A stretch of DNA of 61,931 bases from Candidatus Micrarchaeota archaeon (GTDB taxonomy: Archaea > Micrarchaeota > Micrarchaeia > Norongarragalinales > SBBD01), in NCBI GenBank assembly GCA_043803465.1, contig JAZDKC010000040.1, forward strand, positions 1 to 61,931, in the 5' to 3' direction. Of the stretch, positions 2-41,252 are shown one piece after another. Numbering within the stretch: position 1 is the stretch's first letter; every line of letters begins with the position of its first letter. Made by a program: the position numbers and the translations under genes. The notes under the pieces were generated by a model that saw nothing but the letters and a program-made list of their open reading frames with translations, had not been told where the DNA came from and searched no databases.

Positions 2-250
2 CCAATAAACGAAGACAACGTGAAGAAGACCCTTAGTGCCGCGGGGATGCAGGCGGATGCCGCAAAGGTGAAGTCGCTCGTTTCCTCACTCGAGGGAGTG
101 GACATCGAGGATGCGATCAAGCAGGCCGCTGTTGTTGCCGCTCCTGCTGCCGCAAGTGGTGCCGCAAAGCCCGCTGAGAAGAAGGAGGAAGTGAACGAGG
201 AGAAGAGGGAGGAGGAGGCTGCTGCCGGATTGGCGAGCTTGTTCGGTTAA
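2..250 (+). CDS. rpl12: 50S ribosomal stalk protein P1/L12, C-terminal part (5' end upstream of window)
   Basis: The frame is open from base 2 (..INEDNVKKTLSAAGMQADAAKVKSLVSSLEGVDIEDAIKQA..). It has an Ala-rich hinge, an acidic stretch and the canonical archaeal stalk tail EEAAAGLASLFG, then TAA at 248-250. The listed ORF 20..250 is only the GTG-initiated part. Confidence 0.9.
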   Translation, partial: PINEDNVKKTLSAAGMQADAAKVKSLVSSLEGVDIEDAIKQAAVVAAPAAASGAAKPAEKKEEVNEEKREEEAAAGLASLFG

Positions 251-305
251 TTTTTTCCTCTTTTTTGTTTTATTTATTTTTTCTTAAAGCTAATTCTATT
301 TTTTT
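251..305 (+). terminator. T-rich tract downstream of rpl12 (archaeal oligo-T terminator candidate)
   Basis: Runs of T6, T6, T4 and T6 lie directly after the TAA. Archaeal RNA polymerase terminates at oligo-T. A near-identical tract is repeated at 521-570. Confidence 0.5.
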
Positions 306-324
306 CAATCACTAGAGTAACAAA

Positions 325-410
325 GGGGTAGAGGCGACATACCGAAGACATAGGTCTTCGTATGTTAGTAGAGCTGAGCTCTACGTAACACGAGTAGGGA
401 AATGTCGCTC
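325..410 (+). repeat. Composite/nested copy of the G-rich hairpin element family
   Basis: It starts with GGGGTAGAGGCGACA, identical to the 5' end of the 37128 copy. It contains hairpins CGAAGAC-ATAG-GTCTTCG and GTAGAGC-TGA-GCTCTAC, then ACACGAGTAGGGAAATGT, which matches the 37128 copy apart from one G. GGCGACAT (333-340) can pair with ATGTCGC (402-408). Confidence 0.6.
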
Positions 411-432
411 ATTAATTCGCAGAACAAATTAA

Positions 433-481
433 GGGAGGTAGGGGCGACACGCGTAGGAGGGATATCCCTCCTGAAGGTGTC
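433..481 (+). repeat. G-rich hairpin element, copy abutting the duplicated rpl12 3' end
   Basis: Sequence: GGGAGGTAGGGGC GACAC GCG TAGGAGGG ATAT CCCTCCTG AAG GTGTC. It has an outer stem GACAC/GTGTC, a 3x3 internal loop, an 8-bp inner stem and a 4-nt loop. Confidence 0.7.
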
Positions 482-570: not shown

Positions 571-663
571 TATAACCTAATTATAACCAGCCCTTAATTC
601 AAACCGTAAATAGCCTAGACCATCGAAGGTCAGAATTCTTAGTAGGTCAACAACCTGAATCAA

Positions 664-5960: not shown

Positions 5961-8900
5961 CTACTTCGTGATCTTCGACTTGGATAGCATGTCGTTCAGC
6001 GCCCAGTCGGGCTGCGCGTCGAGCTTCTCGCTGATCGAGTCGAGGTATTCTCCGGTTATGGATCCGGGGCAGTAGCCATTGACTTCGCACGCGTCCCGCA
6101 ATTGCTCGTACATGTTCCTTGCAGCCACAGCAGCATTCGGCTGCTGCACGGGCGTTTCATCAGATGGTGCTGCAGGCAGATCGGTTATCTTATCCACCAC
6201 TTGCGTAAACACTTGATCGGCTGAAATGTCCATCTTCGTCACCGGCGCCTCGATTGTCAGGAAGAGCGATTTGTAGAGTTTTTCGGGGTCGATTCCCTTG
6301 TTCACTCCTGTGATTAGCGTATAGCCCTGCTCTGTCGCGTATTGCCTGCCCTTGATCAGGTAAATGCAGATCGAGCTGTCAGCAGGATCGCACATTGCGC
6401 CCGAATCCAGCGCATTCAGGCAGCCTTCCTCCTCTCCCAGGTTCCTTGCGCAGATGCGCCTCATCGATGCCTTGTCCCATGAAAGCGCACTGCCTTCATC
6501 GACATTGTAGGAAACAAGGTGGTGCGGGAACCTATAATCCAGCGCGCCCTGCACAGGCCTCACATCAACGTGGAACAGCAATGGGATTAGAAGTGAAATT
6601 ATGTTTCGTGATTTCCTGAACCGCTCCAGCTCGCCGTATTCGCCGCCGAAGAATCTCCTGAGCCTGCCCTTCGCCGCCTGCTCCTGCCTCTTGACTTCGC
6701 CGACCAGTTTGTTTGCCTGCTCCGTAGTGAGGCCTAGTTTCGCATATGCACCCGCCGGATCCGTCAATGCCTCCACATTCAGTAGTGCCTTCGCCTTCGA
6801 GGATAAAACTGCCGGCGTCCCAACGCCCTTGAATCTCCTGCTGAGAGTGTCAATGGCTTTCTGGGTCAATTTTTCCTCTTCCGTGAAGAAATCATCCGCA
6901 TAGGAAATCAATGTTTGATCCACAGCGGAAATATCCTGCGCAATTTCACCATACCTAAATGCAGCTGCGCCGGTCAATTTGCTAGGAGGCCGTTTACCGG
7001 TCAATGCGGTATGCTCCTTCTTCAGCGCCTCCCTTTCGGATCTCAGGAGTTTCATTTCCTCCACTATATTGCCCCTCTTCTTGGCAGCATCGGCAAATCC
7101 CTTCGGGTCCATTTGCTCGTACGCTTTTGTGAGTTCGTTCTGTCTCATCATGAAAGCCTCTGGATTCTGTGTAAGATCCTTCTCGAATTGCGCCATCATT
7201 TCCGCTTTTGTGAGCCCCACCCTCTTTGCGTTTAATTGCTGGTCGTACCAATCCAGGTTTGTAGTGCCGGTAGCCGTATCAAAACCAAGCGTCTGCGCCG
7301 CAGCCAGAGTGCCGGCAACGGGCGAATTTGCCTCCATTATCCTGCCGGCCAAGGTGCTTGCATCCTTGATTCCCATCCCCGACCTCGTGAGATAGTCCAT
7401 CAGGTAGGCACGGCTTCCGAATGTCTTTGCGACCTTCAGGCCGCCGTACATAGCGGGTGTCGAAGTGTAGGTCGGCGTATCATCGCCGGTTACAAAATTA
7501 TAGCCGGCGGTCACGCCGTCGATTGCAGTTGTCAGGGCGACAAAACCCACCAATTCGAATAGGAATTTTCCCCCGAATGCGGCGCCGAATTTCAAGCCCT
7601 CGCCGCCGCCGGGAATTGCGGTAATCAATAATTCGGTCGCACCTGCAAAGCCGCCAGCCAAGCAATTGTTCGCAACTTCGCAAACCGGTGTTTTGGAGGT
7701 ATCTGCAGCCCTGAATGTAAGCCCTTGATAAATCGAGGCGCCGCATAAGGCGGCGGTTGTGGAAAGCCCATAAGCCGCTTTGATTGCCATTACTTCATTC
7801 CATACTGCGCTCGGCGCACCTACTCCGGTCAACGCCTTTCCGAAATTGGTCAGCAAACTCCCGCCCAGTGCGAGTGATGCAACGCCCATTGTCGCAACCA
7901 CGCCGCCGGTCATGTAGCCTGCGCAATACCATCCGGCCTCGTACGGTTCCGCCACGGCCATTGCTTCAGAACGGTCTATCTTGTAGAGCGTCCGGTAGAG
8001 GATATTCAGGTTCTGGATGTCCACCCTGTTGGCTGTACGCTTGTAGGGCCCGACAGTGAACAACTGCACCTTGTCAAGCAGGCCTATCAGCCCGCCGGCT
8101 TCGCTGCCGCTATCATCCCCGATGTTCCATCCGATTCCGGTTGACAGCTCGCGGCCCACAACTCCTTCCGTATTTCCGCGCTCCGCTACAAGCAGCGCCG
8201 CATTTGCAAGGGTGAAATTGCATTCCATGCCCGGCGTAAGCCTGAATTCAATGTTCGAATATTTCAGCCAATCGGCCTTCTTGGAGGGAGCTGTTGCAAA
8301 TTTGCAGATGTCGAGCCTTCCCTCCAGTATGTAAACGCCGCAGCCCTTCACATCAACAGTAGAGGTTGTGATCTTGAACCCGTCGTCGGATTGCTTCAAT
8401 ATGGAGTCGAATTCGGATTTAGAAAGCTCCAGCGACCGCTCCGAATCGAGCAGCGTTTCCGAATTTGCAGCCTGCAGGACGATTGATTTCTTGTAACCGC
8501 CATCGCTAAGGGTTTTCTCGCAGAATTTCGTGAGATCATTCGGGTATTCGGCATCCGACGCAAGCGTTTCAACAAGCGTCTTGAATTCTCCTGCAAATTC
8601 AGTGAATGCTGTTTCCACCTGTACAGAGGTGCAGAAATTGGTCTGGCATTTCATCACTGATGCATCCAAAGTTGTGAACACCTGGGGCTTGGGGCCAACA
8701 GAGGAGGGCGCATCATCCGCAAACGATTGCGCATTCACATCTGAATAAAAGCGGTCCACATAGCCGGACAAGGTCACCTCCGCCTCGGCTGTTGCCGCCT
8801 CCTGCGGTGCCAGGTCTCCGAGTGGTGAGGCGGAATACAATGCCTTGAAATCGGGTTCGGGCTCGAATACCTCGATGTTCACGTACCTTATATACTCGTT

Positions 8901-11900
8901 AATATCCCCGGCGGAATCGCTCGGAGTAATCTTCAGGCGGCCCTTGCCTTTCTTCTTTGAAACGCACTTGAGGACAGTCCCCTTGCCGGGTTCGAGCGTG
9001 CCTGTTGAAGGCGAGCAGCTTACCAATTGCGTGTCGCCGGTTACCGAGTAAGTGATTGCCTTGTCAAGATTGTTCACAGCCGCAATTGCACGCTCGTGAT
9101 TGATGCTCTTGAAGGAAAGCTTCATGAGCGCATTGTCGAACCTCACGTTCTGCTGGTCATCCGCATAATTGACATAGAAGCCGTTCATCATCTTCCGGAA
9201 TTGCTTGAACAGCGAGCCGCTGCATGTGCCCGTGCCCTTATCAAGCTTGATCTTTATGCCGATCTTCTCGGTCACCGCCTTCCCGTTGTATTCTCCAAAC
9301 AGGGTCACATATGTTTCGGAGTCGGGGTCGGTGACGCGGCCGTTCGCGCTTTCCAAAATGCAGCCGTCCTCATCCAGATATTGCGACGGCACGCCAATGT
9401 CGAGCCGGAAGGATTGGTATTTGCAGTTCTGCTTTGCAGGATCCACGGATTTGATGATCATCTTCGGATCCACTTGCCATGCGATTGGGCGGGTGACGCT
9501 CTTGAGCGCTCCATCCAGCTCCCCGCTAACTGACTCGCCGGTGTAGCCCACGTACCTCTTCTCGAGCGTCGTGCGGCTCATCAACGGATCGTCATCCAGC
9601 CTGAACTCCACCGCAAGGTTGGAAAAGCCCCAGTTCTGCACGCACACATACCTGGCCTGCGAGCCCTGTGCGTTCGTGTCGTCAAATTCCAAATCCAAAA
9701 GCTTGTCTGCGGTATCCGGCTTCCCGCCTTCAGGAGGCGCCTCGAATGCGACAAGAGGGCTGCTTGCATCCGCGATGAACGCGAATTTGTCCTTCTTCGC
9801 CTTGGTCTCGCAAAGTTCAAATGAAATCTTGTCTGCTTCCCTTACGACAATTTCCTGCGGCTTTTCGGGGTTGTTGGAAGTGCCCGGAAGCAGCCTCGCA
9901 TCCTCCTCGAACACTATTGATTTCACGGATGGAAGCTCATATTCGCGCGGCGCGTCTTCCCCGGCAATCTCGATCTTTATGTTCTTGCAGCCTCCCAGAT
10001 TCGCAATCTTTTGCTTATCATCGAATGTTTGGGCGGTTGAAGGCAGCGATACAGAAACCTCCTTCCCGAAAACCGCATGCAGCCAGTATTTGCCGTCATC
10101 ATCCTTCTTGATGGTTGCGACAATCGTCATGGTGCCCGGGATCGTCAATGTTTTCGGATCCGAGATGAAATCAGCGGAGGTGAAATCATATTGTTTCATC
10201 ATGAGCCTATTGCCCAGGAACGAGAACTCGTCCTTCTGCTCGTGATCCGCAAGCTTTATCTCAGCCGCTTCCGCAAACCGGAATGAATGATAAATCTCCT
10301 CTATTTTCTGCTTGTATGGCTCGAGCTTCGGCTGCAGGAATACGTCCCCGGGGATTTCAGCCATTACGGGGAATGAGAACCGCATCTCAAAATCGCGGCC
10401 TTCGGGAGTCGGGTCTATCTGCGTGAACGTGACGCCCTTCAATGAATCCAATTTCGCAAGGGCAATGTCATTGTAATTGTCGTTCCTCTGGAATGCGAGG
10501 CGCTCGACAGCGTATATCACCCTATAGCCCTCGTTTTCATTCCGTATTGAATTGGGGGGCGTGAGGAGCGCATTCGCGAGCGGGAAGTGGTAGGTCGTCT
10601 GTTCCGGGATCTTGATTGTGAACGATTCCGTCCCGTATTCGGATTTTTCAACCTTGATCATGCGGTTGCCAGCTCCAGGCGCGTTCGCGGAGAATGTGAT
10701 TTCAGTTCCTGCAGCGATCGTGACCTCCTTTGCCTCGAATGCCTTCTCATTCACTTCGACGTTCTCCATCAGCATCCTGTTGCCGTTCTCAAATTGTATC
10801 TGCGTCAGCGCGCCTTTCCTCTTCACTGCTGCCGAGGAGGGCAAATTGATTGTAATGCTTACGGGCAATTTCCTCGTGATCCCTACAACCCCGAAATCAG
10901 TAGGCTGGATGGTAATTGGCGCGGCCGGAAGCGCCTCTATCAATCTTGAGCCATCCGCATATTCGAGCCCGACCCTAGTGGTGCCCTGCGCAAAAAGCAG
11001 CTCATAAACTTCGGTTGAAATGGAGCGCGCCTGCGTTGCGCCGGCATCGAGCGCGAGCGCGATGCGGTCGCTCTTCGGAACCTTGAATTGCAGCTTGAAT
11101 GGCAATTGCAGGTGCAACTCGCCGTTCATCCCCTCCTGCGCATAAGGCGGCGGGATGCGGACAGCTGTTGCAGCCGGGATTGTAATTTTTCTTTGTTCAT
11201 TGAACAGGTCCCCGCTTCCACCGGTTGCAACGGGATCAGTTGAGGAGCGTGAATCCGGCGGCAATGTGATTGTCGTTCCCGAATCAAACTGAATGGCTCT
11301 GGAGCCGGTATAATCATCCGTCCTTATCCGGACCCTTTCTTGAATGACAAAAGTGGTGTCGACGGGGAAGTAGACTTCAATCGAGTCCTGGGAATTCGTG
11401 AAGGGGGTGAGCTGTATTCCGATGTAGGTGTTCGGCGGGATTGTCGCTCGCCTTTCATTGGAGCTTCTGCCCCGGACCAATGGAACCGAGGATGGGAAGT
11501 ACAAATCAAAATCCTCAATGCTTGCGATCTTCTGGCTGTCCTTCTGGGAGAATTCGGTTTCAGGCTCAAAATCAATGAAGGTGGTGAATGGGAACGCAAG
11601 CTTGTAGGAACTTGTTGATAATGACCGCGCATATGGGGACAAACCGGTGGTGCTAAAACCAGTGTAGCCAATCGGCTGGAGCATCGGTGTTTGCTGCACG
11701 TATTTTGGCGATGCCTCGATGAAAACGCCTGCTGGCACTATTATATAGCTCCCCCCTCCGGATGTGACCGCAGGGAATGCTGGCTGATTGGCGTATGACG
11801 AATATTGGTTCGCACTGCTTGTCAATTGCGCACCTGCCCCGAAAATGAACCGTTCCTTGGAGGGCAATTCTATCAGGATGGTGCCATCTGCATTGTACTT

Positions 11901-14900
11901 TGTTTTTGTGTTCGCGGGCAATTGTGCGGTTAGGGAAACCGGAAGGGTAACTTGCAGCGCATTTTCAATCGTGCAGGTTTCAGTCGAGGCGACTGCAACC
12001 TCCGTGGTTGCCGTTTTCTTCGAGTTGATCCCGTTGCTGGAGGCGTAGAAATCGATTTTTCCCTTGAACGTCTCTTCCTCGAATTTGCAGGATTCGGTTG
12101 ATGTCGCGCGGCCGTAAACAGTGAATTCAGCTGTCTCGCCGATATCCAAATTCTTTGAAAGCGGTTCGACGTAAACATTCGGCGAGGAGGATTGGTGGTT
12201 GACAAGGATCGGGTACGGCGCATTGTTGGCGATGATGATCGTCTGCGATTCCTGCTTGATTTTCGGCGGCGCTACTGAGAAACTAAGGGAATCCGGCGAT
12301 ATGCTCCAAAGCGCGTTCAGGTCGTCCTGCTTGAAATCGGTCGTGACGGTGAAGGGGATGTCCTCAGTCTGCTCGGATGCGCCGAGCTTTGCAACTATGC
12401 GAACCTTTCCGGTGATTTTCTCCTTCAATACCTGCGGCTTGTTCGAGACCTTGATGATCAGGTCCGAAATTTCGGCCTCGAGATTGTTGGTATCCCGCTC
12501 AAGCCCCTTGACAGTTGCACCGCCCTTCTCCAAGGTTACATCCGTGTATTTTCCGGTTGTGGAAGTCAGCGTATAGGTTACCTTCAGCTCGTTTGAGAGA
12601 AGATTTTCAACATTGAACGCCGAGACCTCGATTTGATCGGAAGAGGTGGAGATTGAAAGCGCCCGGGTATCGAGCTGGAAAAGCGTGGTCGCCTGCGTCT
12701 GTATTGTGCCCGCCTTCACCTTGAAGCCTTCTGCTGTTACACGGAAGGAAACAGAGCCTATCGAGGGCGGATTCACATTTTCAATCACATAGGTGATGGT
12801 GCCATCCTTTGCCTCCTGCAATTCCGCCTCGAGCACCGCGCCGCCAAGCGCATCTGCTCCGCTTCCAAGGGTCACGAAAGCGTTCTTCAACGGCAGGTTG
12901 AGCGAGTCCGTCACGGTGAACACAACACGGTTTTCCTTCAATGCCTTCAATATCTTCCCGCCGCCCTTCTCCACTATCACATTAAATGAGACCTTCAAAT
13001 CCGGCTTCTCCCCGACGATGCGGAGCGACAGCGGCTTTGTTATCGTGCTTTCCCCGCTTTTTACCGATAATTGCAAATCGATGTTGTTGACGAGCCTTCT
13101 GGCTTGGAGGGTGAATCCGCCCTCTGCATTGTCCGAGGATGTGGAGAGCGACAAAATCTGCCGGTTCTCGGTTGTTTTCAATACGGCCTTGGAGGCACCC
13201 GAAAGCCCTTCGGTGAGAGAGATAGTTTGGTCATCCAATGGCGCGGACAATTCAACTGTCGCCCCCTTTGGTGCAACGATCTTGAAGTTCAATTTGAATG
13301 TTTCGGAAATCGGCGCCTCAAAATTATCCTCAGCCGTGCCTGAGCTTCCCTCGAAATTGCTCTGCAGGCAGATCCCGTTGTCGCATTTGCCCTCGAAGGA
13401 TATTGTGAGCGATTGGGCCTGCATATTTGCAAGGAACGCGCCACGGGGCGCGGAATTGTCGATCGGGTCCCGCAGGACCTCCTTGTCAGTAAAGAACGCC
13501 GACCTGTATTGCAGTTCCACCTTCCCATTCGAAACGGCGCGCGTCCTGAATTGGACGCTCACCTCCTTGCTGCCTTCAAAGGGCTGGAAATCAAAATGGG
13601 CATATTTGTAAGCGTCAGAATCCACGTCCGCGAGGTTGAGCGATGCGGCTGCCGAAGGCGTTTCCGTGCCCTCGATATTCGGCTGCAGGGTCGCAATTGC
13701 CGACGCATCCGTTGAAGTGCCCTTCGTGACAACGGCACCGACCGCATCATAACCGATTATCTCCGCTTGCTCGTTCTCCAAGGCCACACCGGCATTTCCA
13801 ATCCTAACCTGCACCTCAACCCGCGTTATTTTAACTTTCGGCCGGTTGATTACAAACCTTGCGTTATAAGTCGTCGAGGGTGAAAGCGTATTTACCTGCT
13901 CGCCTTTCAAGTTGAAAACCCCGGAATATGCGATCTTCGTTTTCTGCGCGATTTCCGAGAGCATGATCCCGAAGCTGACCTTGTTGTCGATGTTGGGCTT
14001 CACCTCGAATTCGCTCGAGGTAAAAAGGTCGTATTTGTTCGCGCTTACTATTGCGACATAGAAGCCTTCCTGCAATTGCGCGGTGCACCTGCCGGCCTTG
14101 GTTGTGCAGCTTGCAATGGGGGAGAACTCCACATCCGAAGGCGAGAACTCCACCTTCGCATTGTCCACATTCTTGCCTGTGAAGTGGTCCTTCACCAAAA
14201 CGACTGCTCGGCCTTTCGCGGGCTTCAACGCGACTTTCAATAAATTGATTCCCGTTTCCTCGCCGGTGCCGGCAAGTGAGAGCTCAACAATGCTGCTCAT
14301 GCCGTTCCTTCCGTTGAAGGATGCCTTCGCATAAATTTTCACAAGCGGCAATTCTTCATAGCTGGCAATGCCATCATTGCCGGCGATCTTGTCAATTGAC
14401 CCGACAGGGGTTCCATCCTCATAGAAAAGCGAAACTGCTGATTGCGGAACCGCATCCCCGTTCTGGTTCTCCACCTGCACCTTCAATTTTGCGGAGTTGG
14501 CGGTGCTTGCGGATTCCATGTAAACGGTGTAGCTGTTGCCTTTTTCCGCATTCTGGAGGGTTGCAGGCAGGAAGCCGGGCTTTACAACAGTTATATAATA
14601 CTGGCCGCTTCCGACATCGTTGAAAAGCGCAACGCCGTCCATCGGATTGCTCTCCCCTACCTTCGTGAATTTTTCATCGTATAGCTTTGCTACCGGATTG
14701 ACAATTTGCGAATCGCCCATGTCGAGCACAATCACCTTGATCGCCTTGAGCTCCGCTTCCGGGATTTTGTCAAGCGCCAAAAGGAAGTTTGTCTCGTCCT
14801 CGATTGTTTTCTCAGCGGATTTGACCACATATCCCTGAAGGCGTGCAACTGCCTTCACAATTTTCCCTATCGCCAGTTCCTGCGGGCTGATCTCCCCGTT

Positions 14901-15776
14901 CTCCCCGGTTTTCAGATTGGTGAATATTTTCGTGTTGGTTACCGAATCGATAATATCGACGGAAACATCCTTCAATGCCCTTGCAGTCGCAGCATCCGTG
15001 ACATGCACGCGCACTTTTCCATTTATGATCTTGTCCCTTGGCCTTAATGTAATTGAGATGCTCTCGTCGTTCTCCTTCAAATAAATGGTCCGGTTTTCCT
15101 TGTTGTATCCTTGCGCCTCCACTTTCACAAAAAATTCCGTATTCACGGCAAGATCGGAGTATGAGACGGCAAGCCCGGGTTTTGGCGAGCCCGGAACTGA
15201 AAGCCTGTCAGGACCCTCGAACAAATAAATTTGCGCGCTTTCCCCGCTTCCCAGTCCTTTCAAATTGACCGTCAGGCTCACCTTGGGCTCGATTAACGGA
15301 GCGGAAAGGGCGAGGATGAAGGTGGATTTGGTCGGTGTGACTGCAATGCGGTCACTTTCAAAGTTCAATGACTCTCCCTGGAAATCCGAAGCCGCTACAA
15401 GGAATGCGGTTCCTATTTTGATCTTTTCAAAAGTGACTTTTCCATCCTCGTCGGTAGTCGCTTTTTCCGGCGAGGGCACGTCATTGCTTTCGGGGGTCAG
15501 CATTACCTCGGTGTTCGCAAGCGGCCTTCCGGCCGAATCCTTTAATGTGAGCAGGATCGAGGTTTCCTTCGGCGCGAAAATGCTCACCTGGCCGCCTCCG
15601 AGCGTGAGGTAGAGCGTGCCGCCAACTAGGAGCAATAGCAAAACCAAAAAGAAGGGCATCGCGGGGATCCCTTTTTCCTCGAGCGAATCCGAGATGCCGC
15701 GCAGAGGCAGGCCTTTCTCATCAGACCATTCCAGCAGGGATTCCCACTTCTCCTGAAGGCTTTCCGCTATTCCCAT
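5961..15776 (-). CDS. Giant (3271 aa) membrane-anchored surface protein
   Basis: The ORF is uninterrupted. It has a short N-terminal cytoplasmic segment, a TM helix (MPFFLVLLLLLVGGTLYLTL), many beta-sandwich-like repeats of the carboxypeptidase-regulatory/Cna-B style (e.g. LTLKDSAGRPLANTEVML...DEDGKVTFEKIKIG), a Gly/Ala-rich hydrophobic cluster near nt ~7480-7960, and a ~500-aa C-terminal region with coiled-coil-like segments. Confidence 0.9.
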   Translation of the reverse strand: MGIAESLQEKWESLLEWSDEKGLPLRGISDSLEEKGIPAMPFFLVLLLLLVGGTLYLTLGGGQVSIFAPKETSILLTLKDSAGRPLANTEVMLTPESNDVPSPEKATTDEDGKVTFEKIKIGTAFLVAASDFQGESLNFESDRIAVTPTKSTFILALSAPLIEPKVSLTVNLKGLGSGESAQIYLFEGPDRLSVPGSPKPGLAVSYSDLAVNTEFFVKVEAQGYNKENRTIYLKENDESISITLRPRDKIINGKVRVHVTDAATARALKDVSVDIIDSVTNTKIFTNLKTGENGEISPQELAIGKIVKAVARLQGYVVKSAEKTIEDETNFLLALDKIPEAELKAIKVIVLDMGDSQIVNPVAKLYDEKFTKVGESNPMDGVALFNDVGSGQYYITVVKPGFLPATLQNAEKGNSYTVYMESASTANSAKLKVQVENQNGDAVPQSAVSLFYEDGTPVGSIDKIAGNDGIASYEELPLVKIYAKASFNGRNGMSSIVELSLAGTGEETGINLLKVALKPAKGRAVVLVKDHFTGKNVDNAKVEFSPSDVEFSPIASCTTKAGRCTAQLQEGFYVAIVSANKYDLFTSSEFEVKPNIDNKVSFGIMLSEIAQKTKIAYSGVFNLKGEQVNTLSPSTTYNARFVINRPKVKITRVEVQVRIGNAGVALENEQAEIIGYDAVGAVVTKGTSTDASAIATLQPNIEGTETPSAAASLNLADVDSDAYKYAHFDFQPFEGSKEVSVQFRTRAVSNGKVELQYRSAFFTDKEVLRDPIDNSAPRGAFLANMQAQSLTISFEGKCDNGICLQSNFEGSSGTAEDNFEAPISETFKLNFKIVAPKGATVELSAPLDDQTISLTEGLSGASKAVLKTTENRQILSLSTSSDNAEGGFTLQARRLVNNIDLQLSVKSGESTITKPLSLRIVGEKPDLKVSFNVIVEKGGGKILKALKENRVVFTVTDSLNLPLKNAFVTLGSGADALGGAVLEAELQEAKDGTITYVIENVNPPSIGSVSFRVTAEGFKVKAGTIQTQATTLFQLDTRALSISTSSDQIEVSAFNVENLLSNELKVTYTLTSTTGKYTDVTLEKGGATVKGLERDTNNLEAEISDLIIKVSNKPQVLKEKITGKVRIVAKLGASEQTEDIPFTVTTDFKQDDLNALWSISPDSLSFSVAPPKIKQESQTIIIANNAPYPILVNHQSSSPNVYVEPLSKNLDIGETAEFTVYGRATSTESCKFEEETFKGKIDFYASSNGINSKKTATTEVAVASTETCTIENALQVTLPVSLTAQLPANTKTKYNADGTILIELPSKERFIFGAGAQLTSSANQYSSYANQPAFPAVTSGGGSYIIVPAGVFIEASPKYVQQTPMLQPIGYTGFSTTGLSPYARSLSTSSYKLAFPFTTFIDFEPETEFSQKDSQKIASIEDFDLYFPSSVPLVRGRSSNERRATIPPNTYIGIQLTPFTNSQDSIEVYFPVDTTFVIQERVRIRTDDYTGSRAIQFDSGTTITLPPDSRSSTDPVATGGSGDLFNEQRKITIPAATAVRIPPPYAQEGMNGELHLQLPFKLQFKVPKSDRIALALDAGATQARSISTEVYELLFAQGTTRVGLEYADGSRLIEALPAAPITIQPTDFGVVGITRKLPVSITINLPSSAAVKRKGALTQIQFENGNRMLMENVEVNEKAFEAKEVTIAAGTEITFSANAPGAGNRMIKVEKSEYGTESFTIKIPEQTTYHFPLANALLTPPNSIRNENEGYRVIYAVERLAFQRNDNYNDIALAKLDSLKGVTFTQIDPTPEGRDFEMRFSFPVMAEIPGDVFLQPKLEPYKQKIEEIYHSFRFAEAAEIKLADHEQKDEFSFLGNRLMMKQYDFTSADFISDPKTLTIPGTMTIVATIKKDDDGKYWLHAVFGKEVSVSLPSTAQTFDDKQKIANLGGCKNIKIEIAGEDAPREYELPSVKSIVFEEDARLLPGTSNNPEKPQEIVVREADKISFELCETKAKKDKFAFIADASSPLVAFEAPPEGGKPDTADKLLDLEFDDTNAQGSQARYVCVQNWGFSNLAVEFRLDDDPLMSRTTLEKRYVGYTGESVSGELDGALKSVTRPIAWQVDPKMIIKSVDPAKQNCKYQSFRLDIGVPSQYLDEDGCILESANGRVTDPDSETYVTLFGEYNGKAVTEKIGIKIKLDKGTGTCSGSLFKQFRKMMNGFYVNYADDQQNVRFDNALMKLSFKSINHERAIAAVNNLDKAITYSVTGDTQLVSCSPSTGTLEPGKGTVLKCVSKKKGKGRLKITPSDSAGDINEYIRYVNIEVFEPEPDFKALYSASPLGDLAPQEAATAEAEVTLSGYVDRFYSDVNAQSFADDAPSSVGPKPQVFTTLDASVMKCQTNFCTSVQVETAFTEFAGEFKTLVETLASDAEYPNDLTKFCEKTLSDGGYKKSIVLQAANSETLLDSERSLELSKSEFDSILKQSDDGFKITTSTVDVKGCGVYILEGRLDICKFATAPSKKADWLKYSNIEFRLTPGMECNFTLANAALLVAERGNTEGVVGRELSTGIGWNIGDDSGSEAGGLIGLLDKVQLFTVGPYKRTANRVDIQNLNILYRTLYKIDRSEAMAVAEPYEAGWYCAGYMTGGVVATMGVASLALGGSLLTNFGKALTGVGAPSAVWNEVMAIKAAYGLSTTAALCGASIYQGLTFRAADTSKTPVCEVANNCLAGGFAGATELLITAIPGGGEGLKFGAAFGGKFLFELVGFVALTTAIDGVTAGYNFVTGDDTPTYTSTPAMYGGLKVAKTFGSRAYLMDYLTRSGMGIKDASTLAGRIMEANSPVAGTLAAAQTLGFDTATGTTNLDWYDQQLNAKRVGLTKAEMMAQFEKDLTQNPEAFMMRQNELTKAYEQMDPKGFADAAKKRGNIVEEMKLLRSEREALKKEHTALTGKRPPSKLTGAAAFRYGEIAQDISAVDQTLISYADDFFTEEEKLTQKAIDTLSRRFKGVGTPAVLSSKAKALLNVEALTDPAGAYAKLGLTTEQANKLVGEVKRQEQAAKGRLRRFFGGEYGELERFRKSRNIISLLIPLLFHVDVRPVQGALDYRFPHHLVSYNVDEGSALSWDKASMRRICARNLGEEEGCLNALDSGAMCDPADSSICIYLIKGRQYATEQGYTLITGVNKGIDPEKLYKSLFLTIEAPVTKMDISADQVFTQVVDKITDLPAAPSDETPVQQPNAAVAARNMYEQLRDACEVNGYCPGSITGEYLDSISEKLDAQPDWALNDMLSKSKITK

Positions 15777-16817: not shown

Positions 16818-16842
16818 GCATATTCATTCCGAAACAGATTGC

Positions 16843-16908
16843 TTAACCCATCCTCCTTGGCAACGGGTAAATGGCCCCGCACTTCTTGCACACTTTCTCC
16901 TTGTGCTT
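16843..16908 (-). repeat. Second copy of the last 21 codons + stop of the zinc-ribbon gene
   Basis: The minus strand encodes KHKEKVCKKCGAIYPLPRRMG-TAA, identical in amino acids to 16960-17025. The 6 nucleotide differences are all synonymous (GGA/GGG, ATA/ATT, TAT/TAC, CTT/TTG, AGA/AGG). Confidence 0.9.
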
Positions 16909-16959
16909 GACACCCACAGGGAAACTACGTTTCCCTCCACGTGTCGCCGCCACCCTTCC
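16909..16959 (-). repeat. G-rich hairpin element (51 nt) between the two copies of the gene end
   Basis: The minus strand reads GGAAGGGTGGCGGC GACAC GTGG AGGGAAAC GTA GTTTCCCT GTGG GTGTC. The architecture matches 433-481 and 37128-37175. It is 17 sense codons long, in frame with the gene, with no stop. Confidence 0.75.
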
Positions 16960-17304
16960 TTAACCCATCCTTCTTGGAAGCGGATATATGGCTCCGCACT
17001 TCTTGCACACTTTCTCCTTGTGCTTCCAGTTGAGGTCGAAATCAATCCCGCCGCAGTCCGCGCAGCCGCGCACCTCCGCCTTATGAAAGTCGCGCCAGCC
17101 CTCCTTGCCATCCCTTCCCACAAACGATGTGTGCGAATACGCGACCTTCTCGTGCTGGTGGGTTGTTGTAGCTAGCTTGGTGTCGAACTTCTTCCTTTCG
17201 GACGCATGCCGGATCTTCTTGCTCGAGCAGCGGGGGCAGATCTGCGGGTCGTCGGATTCAAATAGCAATTTGCAATTGTCGCATTCGTATTTCATGGGAA
17301 TCAA
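16960..17304 (-). CDS. Small double zinc-ribbon protein
   Basis: 114 aa with CDNC-x10-CPRC and CADC-x14-CKKC. Its start overlaps the stop of the upstream epimerase gene (ATGA-type overlap, 17301-17304). Confidence 0.7.
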   Translation of the reverse strand: MIPMKYECDNCKLLFESDDPQICPRCSSKKIRHASERKKFDTKLATTTHQHEKVAYSHTSFVGRDGKEGWRDFHKAEVRGCADCGGIDFDLNWKHKEKVCKKCGAIYPLPRRMG

Positions 17305-36977: not shown

Positions 36978-37127
36978 CTCCTCCGGTGGGTTTACCGTTT
37001 ATCCAATGGTTTTTTTGCAAGCGTGCGTAATTTTGCCTGCGCGCCTCGAACGAGGGAAAAACATGATGTGAAATCGCAGCTAATCAACTGCGCATATTTC
37101 CAAGGTGGGATTTAATCCCCAAATAAT

Positions 37128-37175
37128 GGGGTAGAGGCGACACGAGTAGGGGAAATGTGTTCCCCTGGAGGTGTC
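37128..37175 (+). repeat. G-rich hairpin element, copy between the two ftsZ genes
   Basis: Sequence: GGGGTAGAGGC GACAC GAG TAGGGGAA ATGTG TTCCCCTG GAG GTGTC. Its 3' end overlaps the stop codon of ftsZ paralog 2 on the opposite strand. A GGGATT-T-AATCCC palindrome lies 10 nt upstream (37107-37119). Confidence 0.7.
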
Positions 37176-38241
37176 AGCCAATGATCTCGATGTCGTACCC
37201 AAGCTCTCTTTCTGCTTCCTTCTTCTTGGTTACATCCCTGCCAACTATGTTGGCCGAGGTGACACCGGTAACTATTGCAACGATCTCCAGCTTTCCATCG
37301 AAGTCAGGTAGCAGCCTTGCTCCCCACTTGACAGAAGCCTTCGCATCCATTGTCTCCGTGATCCTCTCTCCTGCCCGGATCGCATCCCCCAAAGTAAGGT
37401 CCGCGCCTCCGGCAATGTGGATCAGTGCGCCTTTTGCGCCTGCAAAATCCACATCAAGCAGGCGGTTCTTCATGACGCCCTCAACTGCATCATCCACCTT
37501 GTTTGGACCCTTTCCGCTTCCCACTGCAATCATTCCAACGTCCCCTTGCCCCATGATCGACCTGACATCAGCAAAATCTATGTTGACCAGGGATGGTTGG
37601 GTAATTGTGAAAACTAAACCTCCTATTGCCTTTGCAAGAATCTCATCCGCAACAAGGAACGCCTGGTTCATCGGCAGGTTCGGCACGATCTGCACGAGCC
37701 TGTTGTTGTCGAGAATGATGACTGAATCGGCGGTGTTTCTCAGGCGGTTGATTCCGTCCTCCGCCTTCGTGACCCTTGCGCGCTCTAGTGCGAAGGGGTA
37801 TGTTACCATCGCAACCACAATTGCGCCCATTTCCTTTGCGACCTCTGCAATGATCGGCGCAGCGCCAGTCCCAGTGCCTCCGCCCATGCCTGCGCAGATG
37901 AAAACCAGATGGGAACCGGAAAGCGCCCTTCGGATCTCCTCGCGGTCCATTTCAGCGCACTTCGCGCCTACTTCCGGGTATCCGCCTGCACCCAGCCCTT
38001 TTGTGATCGACTTACCAATCAGGAATTTCTTGACCCCTTCTTCAACGATATTCAAATGCTGCCTATCCGTGTTGCATGCAATCAATTCCGCGCCCTTCAC
38101 TCCAAGCCTCTTCAACCTGTTGACAGTGTTGTTCCCGCCGCCTCCGACTCCGATTACGGATATGCGGATGTGCTCGAATTCCTCACTTCTAACTCCAGTT
38201 GCACTAGAGCCACTTAAAGCGGATTTAATGATGCTCTCCAT
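37174..38241 (-). CDS. ftsZ: Cell-division GTPase FtsZ (paralog 2)
   Basis: It has the tubulin signature GGGTGTGAAPIIAEVAK, GVGGGGNN and NTDRQHL. 355 aa. Confidence 0.95.
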   Translation of the reverse strand: MESIIKSALSGSSATGVRSEEFEHIRISVIGVGGGGNNTVNRLKRLGVKGAELIACNTDRQHLNIVEEGVKKFLIGKSITKGLGAGGYPEVGAKCAEMDREEIRRALSGSHLVFICAGMGGGTGTGAAPIIAEVAKEMGAIVVAMVTYPFALERARVTKAEDGINRLRNTADSVIILDNNRLVQIVPNLPMNQAFLVADEILAKAIGGLVFTITQPSLVNIDFADVRSIMGQGDVGMIAVGSGKGPNKVDDAVEGVMKNRLLDVDFAGAKGALIHIAGGADLTLGDAIRAGERITETMDAKASVKWGARLLPDFDGKLEIVAIVTGVTSANIVGRDVTKKKEAERELGYDIEIIG

Positions 38242-38795: not shown

Positions 38796-41252
38796 ATGGT
38801 TTTTATGCCTGAAAAGAAGCGCGCATTCCTTTTGGACGTCGGCTACTTGATGAAGAACAACACGTCGCTTCTGCGATTGTTGCTGAAGGATCCGCAAACA
38901 AAAAGGACCTATCGCGTTTATGACGGGGAATTCGAGCCGTACCTGTACCTGAGGCCAAAGGAGGGGGAAATTGATAAGATTCAAGAAGACCTGATGCGCA
39001 TCCGCGTATTCGACCACGGAAAGGAAGTGAAAATAAAAAAGGTCGGGAAAGTGACTCGCTCCTTGAGGCATGAGGAATACGATTTCTTGAAAATAACCTG
39101 CCTCCACCCATCCGATGTCACAAAAATTCGGGATGAGGCGAAAAAATTCGGCGAAACGTTCGAGCACGGGATCTCCTTCACGAAAAGGTACCTGATCGAC
39201 AAGGGATTGATTCCGATGAGGGAAGTCGAATTCCACGAGGGGGATGGGAGGAAAATCAGCGGCATCGCCCCCATTGAGGATGCACAACTATCGGAGGTTC
39301 CGATGAAATTAATGGCGCTCGATATTGAAACGTACAATCCGAAGGGCATTCCAAATCCGCTCTCCGACCCCGCAATACTGATCGGGTGGGCGGATGGGGA
39401 GGAGAAAGGCATTTTCACATTCCAGAAAAAAGTGAGGGATGAGAACGCCCACGTTTCTGCGACTGAAAAGGAGATGCTCGAGGCGTTTGGGGATTTCCTG
39501 AAAAGGAAAAAAGTCGATTTGCTCGCGACCTATAACGGGGATCAGTTCGATTTGCCGTATTTGCGGGACCGCGCAAAAGTTTTGAAAGCCGGAATGCACC
39601 TTGGAAGGGATAGGGCGCCACCGAAGAGCAAATCCCTGGGCCTTAGGATCCAGACATCGCTAAATGGCCGCATTCATTTCGATGTTTTCCCAATTGTTTC
39701 CTTCCTGAACACGATCGGCGCATACAAGCTTGCGCGCCTCACCCTTGAAAATGTATATTTTGAAATCCTCGGAGGGAAGAAACTCGATGTCAAGAAGGAA
39801 AACATCTGGAGGGATTGGGATTCGAACGATCCTGCGAAATTGAAATACCTCGCGGAATATTGCGAGAATGATGCGGTCGCGGCGTACAGGCTTGCAATGC
39901 ACGTGATGCCGCTTGAAATCGAGCTTTGCAGGCTGACCGGCACATCGATTTTCGATGCGACCAGGAGCACTTCGGGCCAGCTGATTGAAATGCTCCTGAT
40001 GAGGGAGGCGTTCAAGGCGCATGAGATCATACCGAATAAGCCAAAGTACGAGGAAGTCCAGAAAAGGCTGGCAAATCCGGTCGAGGGCGCGTTCGTCAAA
40101 TTGCCTTCCCCGGGCGGTTATGAGAATATTGCAGTGCTTGATTTCAGGAGCCTGTACCCTTCAATAATCATTTCGCATAACATCGATCCTTCGACTTTGA
40201 ATTGCAAGTGCTGCTCCAGGGAGGAGTCATATGTTTCGCCGCAGGGCCATCGGTTTTGCAAAAAAAGGAAGGGTTTGATTCCGAGAGTTTTGCAATTCGT
40301 GCTCAATTCCAGGTATGAAATCAATGGAAAAATGAAGGAATTGAAAAAGGACGGGAAGGAGGAGGGATTCGGGTACAAGGAGATGGATGCAAGGCAATGG
40401 GCGTTGAAGATCATGGCGAATTCGATGTATGGCTATTTGCTTTATGCGCGCTCCCGCTATTATTCCAGGGAAGCGGGCGAATCGGTCACCGCATATGCGC
40501 GCGAATACATCCAAAAAACCATGGAGAAGGCGAAGGAATTCGGGATGGATGTGCTTTACGGCGACACGGACAGCATTTTCTTGCTTTACGGCAAAAAGGA
40601 GGATGAGCATAAGGTGACGGAATTCCAGCACAGGATAAATTCGGAACTGCCGGAGGGACTGGAGCTCGAGCTTGAGGATATCTATCCCCGCGGGATTTTC
40701 GTGAGCAAGAAGCAGGAGGAGAAGGGCGCGAAGAAAAAATACGCGCTGATCAACCGCGCGGGCAAAATTAAAATACGGGGATTCGAGCTTGTGAGGAGGG
40801 ACTGGAGCAAGGTTGCGAAGGACACGCAGCGCAAGGTGCTTGAAATCATCCTGAAAGAGGGGGATGTCACCAAGGCAATCGTGCTTGTTCGTGAAGTGAT
40901 TGAAAACCTAAAGTCCGGAAACACGCCGCTCGAGGAGCTTTCAATAATGACCCAGCTGAAAAAGCAGGCCGGAAGCTATGATATCATCTCCCCGGAGGTT
41001 TCCGCGGTGCAAAAGGCGAAAAAAGCCGGAGTGGTGCTCGATGACATGCCGATGATCAGCTATGTGATAACGAAAATGGGAAAAACCATTTCCGAGAAGG
41101 CCACAATCGTGGAAATGGCCAAGGATTACGATCCGGATTATTACATCAACAACCAGGTGCTTCCCGCAGTGCTCAAAATACTTTCCGCTTTCGGCTTCGA
41201 TGCGGAAAGCCTGAAGATGAAGGGGCAGCAGAAGAGCCTGGGCGACTGGTGA
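38796..41252 (+). CDS. polB: Family-B DNA polymerase with all catalytic motifs intact
   Basis: Motifs present: ExoI LDIETYN, ExoII YNGDQFDLPYL, ExoIII EYCENDA, motif A DFRSLYPSII, motif B KIMANSMYGY, motif C YGDTDS, KKKYA. 818 aa, no intein. Confidence 0.95.
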   Translation: MVFMPEKKRAFLLDVGYLMKNNTSLLRLLLKDPQTKRTYRVYDGEFEPYLYLRPKEGEIDKIQEDLMRIRVFDHGKEVKIKKVGKVTRSLRHEEYDFLKITCLHPSDVTKIRDEAKKFGETFEHGISFTKRYLIDKGLIPMREVEFHEGDGRKISGIAPIEDAQLSEVPMKLMALDIETYNPKGIPNPLSDPAILIGWADGEEKGIFTFQKKVRDENAHVSATEKEMLEAFGDFLKRKKVDLLATYNGDQFDLPYLRDRAKVLKAGMHLGRDRAPPKSKSLGLRIQTSLNGRIHFDVFPIVSFLNTIGAYKLARLTLENVYFEILGGKKLDVKKENIWRDWDSNDPAKLKYLAEYCENDAVAAYRLAMHVMPLEIELCRLTGTSIFDATRSTSGQLIEMLLMREAFKAHEIIPNKPKYEEVQKRLANPVEGAFVKLPSPGGYENIAVLDFRSLYPSIIISHNIDPSTLNCKCCSREESYVSPQGHRFCKKRKGLIPRVLQFVLNSRYEINGKMKELKKDGKEEGFGYKEMDARQWALKIMANSMYGYLLYARSRYYSREAGESVTAYAREYIQKTMEKAKEFGMDVLYGDTDSIFLLYGKKEDEHKVTEFQHRINSELPEGLELELEDIYPRGIFVSKKQEEKGAKKKYALINRAGKIKIRGFELVRRDWSKVAKDTQRKVLEIILKEGDVTKAIVLVREVIENLKSGNTPLEELSIMTQLKKQAGSYDIISPEVSAVQKAKKAGVVLDDMPMISYVITKMGKTISEKATIVEMAKDYDPDYYINNQVLPAVLKILSAFGFDAESLKMKGQQKSLGDW

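Follow-up and report, generated by a model that had tools for sequence, protein, structure and literature searches.

Why does one small G-rich hairpin recur between the genes of this stretch of DNA, at or near their ends, and what kind of element is it? The window, by which we mean the whole 61.9-kb stretch that was analyzed, has an archaeal gene content, with two FtsZ paralogues, ribosomal stalk protein P1 and family B polymerases. We refer to the repeated G-rich hairpin element as E, and L-numbers (such as L015) denote the loci that were fetched for comparison. A sequence-only reading had placed copies at 325-481, 37128-37175 and 16909-16959 (-), and the four places involved are confirmed by sequence, leader pattern, fold and covariance model. 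Three of the copies are canonical short ones, at 431-481 (+), 37124-37175 (+) and 16909-16960 (-), and one, at 321-412 (+), is long or composite. The features discussed below are as follows.

20..250, + strand: ORF of ribosomal stalk protein P1, the host gene of the locus 1 duplication
212..307, + strand: target copy A of locus 1, consisting of the last 12 codons and stop of P1 (212-250, ending in EEAAAGLASLFG and the stop), then about 57 nt of T-rich downstream DNA
308..412, + strand: long ('composite') E, with leader 308-326, GGTAGAGGCGA, hairpin 1, hairpin 2 and a third hairpin that is cut off
411..481, + strand: short canonical E of locus 1, with leader 411-436 (attaattcgcagaacaaattaaggga) and core 437-481 (GGTAGGGGCGACAC...GGTGTC); covariance-model score 67.7 bits
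482..572, + strand: target copy B of locus 1, with the same 12 P1 codons and stop TGA, then homologous T-rich downstream DNA
16959..17025, - strand: target copy A of locus 2, comprising the final 21 codons, with stop, from the gene for a 114-aa zinc-ribbon protein (ORF 16960..17304, - strand)
16909..16958, - strand: type II short E of locus 2, GGTGGCGGCGACAC-GTGG-AGGGAAAC-GTA-GTTTCCCT-GTGG-GTGTC; covariance-model score 51.7 bits
16842..16908, - strand: target copy B of locus 2, with the same 21 codons and stop directly after GTGTC, then native downstream DNA
37124..37175, + strand: short canonical E of the ftsZ site, antisense to both ftsZ paralogues; covariance-model score 70.9 bits

Four sites in the 61.9 kb match the leader pattern GGYRGVGGCGACAY perfectly, every one of them at a copy of E, and the pattern GGCGACAY-N20-45-RTGTC has three matches in the window when 0.11 are expected by chance, a count that is reached by 0 of 100 shuffled sequences. 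When an unfiltered covariance model built from 33 copies is run over both strands of the window, it returns only the four E sites, with scores of 70.9, 67.7, 51.7 and 24.6 bits, and the runners-up are either the opposite strands of the same copies or have E-values above 0.6. The 24.6-bit match (321-366) belongs to the long copy, in which the variable hairpin 1 is CCGAAGAC/GUCUUCG, hairpin 2 is GTAGAGC/GCTCTAC and the third hairpin ends after GGGAAATGT, stopping where the leader of the next element starts. The 3' end of that next element, the short E of locus 1, directly adjoins copy B, and the last two bases of the ftsZ-site copy belong to the TGA stop of ftsZ2 (37174..38241, - strand).

In the short copies of the window, an outer stem of 5 bp (GACAC/GUGUC) is followed by a symmetric 3x3 or 4x4 internal loop, an inner stem of 8 bp and a loop of 3-5 nt, and our folds agree in this respect with the stem, small symmetric loop and hairpin that had been drawn from the letters. 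The short copies fold at -19.4 to -21.7 kcal/mol (z = -3.1 to -3.6), and the long copy (322-412) adopts a multi-hairpin fold at -32 kcal/mol (z = -4.2). Among the 33 copies selected by pattern, 99.3% of stem cells are paired and double changes occur in four inner-stem pairs. In a set of 52 copies that was gathered with the covariance model, and is free of the search-pattern constraint, 98.4% of stem positions are paired and double changes occur in 8 of 13 pairs (86 cells), so that the compensatory changes claimed for the inner stem are real. None of 500 shuffles attains these figures, and slid controls pair at about 50%. The outer stem of the 52 copies also shows double changes, from G-C to A-U in seven and from A-U to C-G in two. 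The hairpin of E is kept by selection on its structure. Moreover, the inner stem has U-A at its base in 21 of the 52 copies and U-G in another 21, and the U-G pair would become a C-A mismatch on the opposite strand; because of this pair, and because the leader is found on one side only, we take the G-rich strand to be the strand that folds. These pairs do not distinguish RNA from single-stranded DNA, since G-T wobble is tolerated in DNA as well. The U-G pairs on the G-rich strand are the only hint of an RNA intermediate. Conserved in sequence are the 5' unpaired triplet G[A/C]G, its 3' counterpart NN[A/C]G and the box GGTAGRGGC, and these positions may represent contacts with a protein. The geometry of the internal loop is unsuitable for a K-turn or a bulge-helix-bulge, and a bulge-helix-bulge intron is rejected because the unpaired triplets of E lie opposite one another, instead of forming two 3-nt bulges on either side of a helix, and its inner helix has 8 bp, not 4 bp. 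At locus 2, the sequences flanking the junction between gene body and copy A (body|A) and that between E and copy B (E|B) are not complementary, as judged by eye.

On its 5' side the element extends further than in the earlier account, since GGTAG is preceded by a leader, tt.ATTCGCARARGTAAMTAARGG, that can reach about 35 nt. A complete E consists of an A-rich leader of about 35 nt, the G-rich box GGTAGRGGC and then one hairpin (short form) or three (long form), and it ends exactly at GTGTC; the core of the short form measures 45-50 nt, compared to about 100 nt for the long form. GTGTC is invariant as the 3' end, apart from the variants GTGTT and GGGTT, which have a compensating 5' change. The 5' leader is shortened variably, with 2-35 nt retained. 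Three left junctions were examined, and at each of them the target has leader-like sequence (microhomology), the shared letters being CGCAAA in L046, TTAAG in the window and AGCG in L014. The window example is locus 2, at which the leader is cut to 4 nt and the left junction lies at the gene's TTAAG, a match to the leader motif AAATTAAGG. In L046 the last codon and stop of the gene come from E, and the protein ends in YRKV instead of YRK. Copies of E had been said to touch stop codons, and this has two separate causes, namely the TAA or TAG within the A-rich leader and microhomology junctions that fall at the gene's own stop.

The long form is present in at least four copies (the window; L047, 7594-7695; L091, 1941-2039; and L029, 2831-2931, on a type II background), and the composite architecture described for the window thus recurs in three other genomes. 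In this form the leader and GGTAGAGGCGA are followed by a hairpin that varies, then by one with the arms GTAGAG..CTCTAC, and finally by the usual terminal hairpin. Hairpins 1 and 2 both show compensatory changes, and the CTCTAC arm is able to pair alternatively with GTAGAG of the leader. The long form could be a master copy or a recurrent nested insertion. The suspicion that elements insert into each other is substantiated by nested copies at L015 (870-916) and L064 (5076-5122).

The pattern GGTAGNGGCGACAC-N24-36-GGTGTC, run against one genome per prokaryotic species, gives 64 loci. Thirty of these are in at least nine Candidatus Micrarchaeota MAGs, one of which is labelled order Norongarragalinales and one only 'archaeon', and the hairpin is present in 30 of 30; the other 34 are in high-GC bacteria, have no hairpin and correspond to about chance level by our own estimate. 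The richest genome is represented in groundwater from Hainich (samples H41/H43). The metagenome scan mainly retrieves the same groundwater genome again, plus a few new loci, and 24 matches on viral contigs are rejected as viral copies of E because all represent one conserved phage coding sequence without the hairpin, a coincidence of pattern. As far as these scans show, the E family is confined to Micrarchaeota (class Micrarchaeia), in which it recurs on both strands as had been proposed for the window. Rfam 15 has no match in the window at gathering thresholds, and a search by E-value (E <= 1) returns nothing for 200-600 of the window and one 15-bit match for L047, to ALIL, a family with a gathering score of 50. 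A CRISPR array is also rejected, since the elements at L047 differ from one another, whereas homology links the 'spacers' both with one another and with the neighboring gene. The statement that E is no known RNA family, ribozyme or CRISPR repeat therefore survives. Full-text searches of the literature brought up no specific account of such a repeat or MITE in Micrarchaeota.

The flanks of E supply a further observation, which the sequence-only reading had missed. At about 25 of the 33 pattern-matched copies, 14-94 nt ending just upstream of E recur 0-8 nt after GTGTC, with flank alignment scores of 26-137 compared to shuffled maxima of 20-27, and most of the copies found later also have the flank repeat. 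The duplication reconstitutes the interrupted gene end. The majority of duplicated targets are 3' ends of protein genes in sense orientation, with antisense 5' ends of genes being duplicated at L024, L042 and L152, and tRNA gene ends from the T-loop onward at L020, L017 (2733-2782), L015 and L064. The DNA between the repeats is 50-270 nt long and non-coding. In the window, the direct repeat is 212-275 versus 482-545 at locus 1 and 16956-17025 versus 16839-16908 at locus 2; the nearest homologues of the zinc-ribbon gene at locus 2 are in Micrarchaeota MAGs. About one-quarter of the 33 pattern-matched copies have no flank repeat nearby, among them the ftsZ copy, for which a repeat was sought within 300 nt and across the whole window. 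A larger integrated element with a distant upstream copy A is rejected, because at such repeat-less copies the flank does not recur anywhere in the 8-kb loci or the window. Inspection by eye of about 28 sites reveals no conserved target motif (TAM-like) at the junctions, and no conserved motif is seen at the body|A junction. It is the flanking duplication of gene ends that marks E as a mobile element, which the earlier account had treated mainly as a structured RNA. E is best described as a new family of tiny, non-coding, non-autonomous mobile elements with an unusual insertion anatomy, and not as a free-standing regulatory RNA.

The comparison with MITEs that had been made for the window is apt insofar as E is small, non-coding, non-autonomous, multi-copy and mostly intergenic, and undergoes nested insertion. 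Prokaryotic MITEs are defined as having a fixed target duplication of 2-10 bp (PMC11602168), however, whereas that of E is variable at 14-94 nt. In addition, terminal inverted repeats are absent from E, in that the arms GACAC/GTGTC enclose only the 3' hairpin and the 20-45 nt on the 5' side (leader and GGTAGRGGC) have no inverted partner. We reject a MITE on these two grounds. An IS200/IS605-derived PATE would insert 3' of a fixed tetra- or pentanucleotide and leave no duplication, and it is rejected because the E junctions (about 28 sites) have no fixed motif and duplications are present. There is no transposase among the 20 window proteins scanned with Pfam.

Identity between the upstream copy A and the downstream copy B ranges from 100% to about 75%. 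The duplications are identical at L039 (54/54), L046 (36/36), L020 (21/21) and L015 (20/20). At each of the two window loci there are 5 synonymous and 0 non-synonymous codon differences, AGC to TCT being one of those at locus 1. The two copies of 19 curated pairs (271 codons) differ at 111 nucleotides, distributed 18/5/88 over the three codon positions, and 84 of the codon differences are synonymous versus 10 that are non-synonymous. Random placement of an equal number of changes gives a mean of 77.8 non-synonymous differences, with a minimum of 62 in 3000 runs. The 84 to 10 ratio rules out the decay of a dead copy as the sole explanation. The differences between A and B include multi-step synonymous swaps (AGC/TCT, AGA/CGG and TTG/CTT). 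When sorted by the base in the upstream copy (A 27, T 21, C 18, G 20, with transitions prevailing), they show no adenine bias, which excludes a DGR with its TR/VR pair, since the changes affect all bases and not only adenines. Copy B is not translated by read-through, because the A-B offsets are scattered over all three frames and in-frame stops are common in E. B retains its genome's own amino-acid variants (V, A and Y in the window; I, S and M in L014). The simplest reading is that each version of a gene end was a working end in some lineage until shortly before its placement. Among the homologues obtained, none is a relative more than 90% identical to any occupied locus.

Several versions of one gene end may also be stacked. 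The array at L047 has the order v1-E-v2-E-v3-E(long)-v4-E(type II)-v5, that is, five versions of one C-terminus, DY[RK]xWVD[DNG]YLAKPLLKK followed by a stop, with four differing elements between them, and L001 has the order A-E-B-E-C. The L047 versions are about equidistant by hand count, with 7-11 differences per 36 nt (v4/v5 excepted), and an origin of the array as a time series, or 'ladder', is rejected for this reason. The internal versions v2-v4 are not translatable, yet their mutual differences are almost all synonymous, so that they look like functional sequence although they are not expressible. A search for natural alleles matching v2-v5 found nearest homologues that are only about 70% identical and have other C-termini. 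The arrays are not made of integron attC cassettes, because E ends in GACAC/GTGTC rather than in R''/R' boxes (RYYYAAC...GTTRRRY) and the 'cassettes' are 36-54-nt versions of one gene end.

These figures bear on ordinary transposition with a long staggered cut, in which the two copies would be identical at birth and diverge in place, B being a decaying pseudo-copy. The identical duplications at L039, L046, L020 and L015 are what such a process would leave, and variable duplication length is reported for a few IS families (IS1634). In-place decay, however, predicts at least about 60% non-synonymous differences, compared to the 10 of 94 that are observed, and neither the multi-step synonymous swaps nor the untranslatable L047 versions v2-v4, which differ almost only synonymously and are about equidistant by hand count with no time ladder, are consistent with it. 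As a sole explanation, staggered-cut transposition is already contradicted, and we consider the idea very improbable.

Comparison of orthologous loci, which the sequence-only reading had suggested, shows that the end of the zinc-ribbon gene is occupied in some genomes and empty in others. E is absent from L089 (the closest relative, with 77% amino acid identity), L090 and L096, and present at a common junction in the window, L014 and L093; L091 has a long-form E at another junction, and L094 has a long type II E with no repeat. The common junction has a type II element in the window, and in L014 and L093 it has one of type I. L024, L042 and L152, which form a second orthologous group, also share a single junction. 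Near-identical cores with the inner stem GGGGAGTTACTCCCC occur at three loci of one genome (L015, L019 and L045), which would be a sign of recent spread within that genome. E also interrupts three tRNA genes (L008; L064, 577-626; and L015, 6718-6764), in each case where the T-loop ends on its 3' side (position 59/60 of the tRNA), and these copies might be spliced out, for which the epsilon2-type splicing endonuclease (described in PMC3239211) is a candidate.

An alternative is that E is a cis-acting structured RNA (a 3'-UTR stabilizer, terminator, processing site or ribosome-binding mimic) passed on by vertical descent, the duplications being incidental. The conserved structure, including its G-U pairs, and the fact that most copies are in sense orientation after a gene would suit such a role, as would the Shine-Dalgarno-like GGAGGTG of the 3' arm. 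This motif had been pointed out before and is indeed conserved, but a role in translation is unsupported because no start codon regularly follows the 3' arm and many copies, including that at ftsZ, are antisense to their neighbors. The pattern of presence and absence at orthologous sites argues against a purely vertical element, other copies are inside tRNA genes or inside one another, and the flanking repeats would be left without a reason. We therefore regard a cis-acting RNA as highly improbable as an account of E, although a cis effect in addition to mobility is possible.

Our main reading, to which we assign a probability of roughly 55%, is that E is a non-autonomous element that moves via a single-stranded intermediate, and that units of gene end plus E spread between alleles and lineages. 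In the first step of this model, E would be copied through a single-stranded intermediate, either RNA or ssDNA, with the 3' hairpin acting as a handle for an enzyme encoded elsewhere, and fresh insertion sites would have little or no duplication. We prefer a target-primed, retroposon-like route for this step, the second choice being an HUH or rolling-circle type, which would fit almost equally well. We lean toward the retroposon-like route because target-primed reverse transcription characteristically leaves an exact 3' end, a truncated 5' end, microhomology and a duplication of variable length, all four of which E displays, and because the U-G pairs of E fit RNA. In the second step, gene end A, leader and E would be copied as a unit into E-less alleles of the same gene, on sister chromosomes or in related lineages, by integration of a Campbell-type or one-ended kind, for which the A side alone supplies homology; equivalently, the incoming DNA would be a circle that links GTGTC to the beginning of A. 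The product would be body-A-E-B, with A being the donor's gene end and B the resident one displaced downstream, and arrays would result from several rounds of this step. Such a step would give an exact E|B junction that is reused within an array and among orthologues, and it would yield identical A/B pairs when the donor resembles the recipient and synonymously diverged pairs when the donor comes from a related lineage. Homology of 40-70 nt at 75-90% identity should integrate inefficiently, however, which would indicate an unrecognized site-directed step, and the different E subtypes at the same junction would require target specificity or later replacement of the element. As for the partner enzyme, a Pfam scan of the 20 larger of the window's approximately 36 candidate genes gave housekeeping proteins or no family, and there is no autonomous partner with an identical 3' hairpin in the window or the 8-kb loci.

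Fungal mitochondria contain mobile endonuclease ORFs (mORFs) with a foreign C-terminal gene end, as in atp6 of Allomyces macrogynus and atp6, atp9, cox2 and nad3 of Glomus (PMC3630166). Their layout is gene core, inserted gene end, mobile element and displaced native end, the two ends differ largely synonymously, and the accepted explanation is that gene end and element spread together horizontally (PMC3630166). Of the architectures described, that of mORFs with a carried gene end is the nearest to E. They are about 1 kb long and encode their own LAGLIDADG or GIY-YIG nuclease, however, whereas E measures 50-110 nt, has no ORF, and is present in multiple copies at many genes and tRNAs of an archaeal chromosome.

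Integrative elements, which have att sites in the 3' ends of tRNA or protein genes, resemble E in their gene-end direct repeats, restored gene, tandem stacking and blocks extending from the tRNA T-loop to the 3' end. E might be a miniature version moved by a tyrosine-type or integron-like recombinase in trans, in which case the repeats would be attL/attR identity blocks and the carried gene end would restore the target. The tRNA duplications at L020, L017 (2733-2782) and L015 span the T-loop to the 3' end, which is a classic integrase sublocation, elements are stacked in tandem at one site, orthologues use the same junction, and the targets (tRNA T-arms and E itself) can form hairpins. Against these points, the unit of about 100-150 bp is too small for an ordinary double-stranded circle, and variable truncation of the 5' leader with microhomology at three junctions is unexpected for conservative site-specific recombination. 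Moreover, there are no inverted core sites around the crossover, and E neither encodes an integrase nor has one beside any copy. We find this reading rather unlikely.

SINEs and other non-LTR retroposons have an exact 3' end, variable 5' truncation, target duplications of variable length and some microhomology at the 5' junction, each of which is found for E, and the 3' stem-loop of E could be a handle for a partner enzyme. To our knowledge, SINE-like elements are not known in bacteria or archaea, and no partner reverse transcriptase is present among the 20 Pfam-scanned window proteins. A stronger version of our proposal, which we advance tentatively as the less probable one, is that E is the first prokaryotic SINE-like retroposon, or a guide-bearing homing cassette, in which a host-encoded enzyme would copy a structured RNA of about 80 nt back into DNA where genes begin or end, gene ends being dragged along with it. 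REP/RAYT systems, which are described in bacteria, provide another comparison, since REPs and REPINs share with E a short imperfect palindrome under compensatory change, an extragenic location and tens of copies per genome. REPs have a conserved GT[AG]G head that adjoins the palindrome; on the 5' side of the E palindrome there is a conserved GGTAG or GGTGG, but NGGC intervenes before the stem, so that GTAG is 5 nt away from it. REP/RAYT systems are characterized by inverted doublets, a REP-flanked RAYT gene and the absence of a target duplication, whereas E has long target duplications and its copies are single or in direct arrays, and we do not count E among the REPs or REPINs.

The guide-bearing alternative can be put more specifically as RNA-guided homing, in which the E hairpin would be the scaffold and copy B the guide, as in TnpB omega-RNA or Cas12 crRNA. 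A nuclease from elsewhere would cut E-less alleles that match B, repair would copy A and E into them, and A would be spared by its synonymous divergence. The scaffold followed at an exact junction by a variable 3' segment, the single peptide written in different codons in A and B, the reuse of one junction and the likeness of the arrays to repeat-spacer arrays directed against alleles of one gene are all consistent with this scheme. Many A/B pairs are identical, however, which would imply self-targeting, there is no conserved TAM/PAM upstream of the target position, and duplication length extends over 14-94 nt. In addition, about one-quarter of the 33 pattern-matched copies lack a duplication, and no nuclease gene is present among the 20 Pfam-scanned window proteins. 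RNA-guided homing therefore seems doubtful to us.

Finally, every data source is a MAG or a contig from a mixed-population metagenome, and strain variants of a gene end might have been chained during assembly. The same architecture is seen in at least nine MAGs, however, with contig names that indicate different assemblers and studies, the k-mers across the E|B and A|leader junctions are obtainable from reads only, and E covaries across genomes, so that an assembly artefact is scarcely credible.

In practical terms, gene callers and tRNA finders applied to E-bearing genomes will be misled by the duplicated gene ends and by tRNA genes that are interrupted. DPANN archaea have tiny, compact genomes in which mobile DNA is little known, and E, by rebuilding the gene end that it interrupts, illustrates a way of spreading where intergenic space is nearly absent. 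We know of no described prokaryotic transposition mechanism that fits an anatomy in which the 3' hairpin is exact, the 5' end truncated and the duplication both long and variable, and the enzyme behind E could therefore reveal a new one. Moreover, the synonymous-only divergence and the arrays of up to five C-termini suggest that short segments are frequently exchanged between related lineages, and this exchange would be traceable via the copies of E. If the retroposon or homing reading is true, Micrarchaeota keep stacks of alternative, horizontally acquired gene termini.

The element, together with its leader and in antisense orientation, interrupts three tRNA genes, namely Asn-GTT, Gly-CCC and a third without an assigned identity, and ARAGORN detects none of them:

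L008 358-527, + strand: interrupted tRNA gene, the insert (element and leader) being about 95 nt
L064 about 480-700: interrupted tRNA gene, with the element at 577-626 (-)
L015 around 6718-6764, - strand: interrupted tRNA gene

Insertion occurs in each case at the boundary of the T-loop and T-stem, which may correspond to position 59/60, where a non-canonical tRNA intron site is known in Ca. Micrarchaeum (PMC3239211). The L008 insert is also self-closing, in that a helix pairs an arm of the element with CCUGGAGGU close to the opposite end of the insert. At a further locus (L017 2733-2974), two elements in opposite orientations lie on either side of a tRNA-Arg gene. One of these duplicates the 3' end of the tRNA (17/17 nt), and the second duplicates its 5' end together with upstream DNA (24/25 nt). 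The segment that still adjoins the tRNA carries TTTATATTAA, which looks like a TATA box, approximately 25-30 nt upstream of the tRNA start.

In the zinc-ribbon locus of another MAG (L093 1975-2120), the downstream copy matches the gene over only about 33 nt, and beyond that point the open frame is unrelated to it (…SGKGSYVQKTYPMFVELNESAKPLCA*). The divergent tail may reflect a deletion, or it may be what remains of another C-terminus that the gene once had. Where the element lies upstream of a gene start (L042 3540-3660 (-), with orthologues in L024 and L152), the displaced copy retains the ATG and about 14 codons. Its frame in L042 runs through the antisense element and ends at a TGA that shares bases with the start codon of the functional copy (ATGA); the displaced copy may be a coupled upstream ORF.

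The window also contains the following genes:

5961-15776, - strand: one ORF of 3271 aa
35892-36977 and 37174-38241, - strand: tandem pair of FtsZ paralogues
38796-41252, + strand: family B DNA polymerase gene
56304-58586, - strand: family B DNA polymerase gene

The 3271-aa ORF probably encodes a giant surface protein because its giant orthologues in L089 and L094 give faint Big_1, CarboxypepD_reg and SpaA matches. Both FtsZ paralogues and both polymerase genes fall within 25 kb, and the element at 37124-37175 is located between the two ftsZ genes.

Viral occurrence of the element was rejected: the 24 pattern matches in viral contigs (L065-L088) all represent a single phage gene segment, conserved and coding (GGTAGTGGCGACACAAAG...GATGGTGTC), which varies at third positions, lacks the hairpin and fits the element pattern by chance. 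The window element at 431-481, after the stalk protein gene P1, has a core nearly identical to that of L026 1290-1340 (-), with inner stem GGAGGGATATCCCTCC. This second copy belongs to MAG JACRGC and follows a gene different from P1, and the near-identity of the cores indicates that element subfamilies are common to different genomes. L047 7327-7862 is an array in which the final 11-17 codons of a FlaI/VirB11-type ATPase gene occur in five versions, with four elements between them that differ from one another: two are short type I, one is long and one is type II. Several homologues of this ATPase (P0034, P0036, P0058, P0062 and P0063) contain intein and homing-endonuclease domains (PF14528, PF14890), which shows that these archaeal lineages, or relatives of them, have homing elements in circulation.
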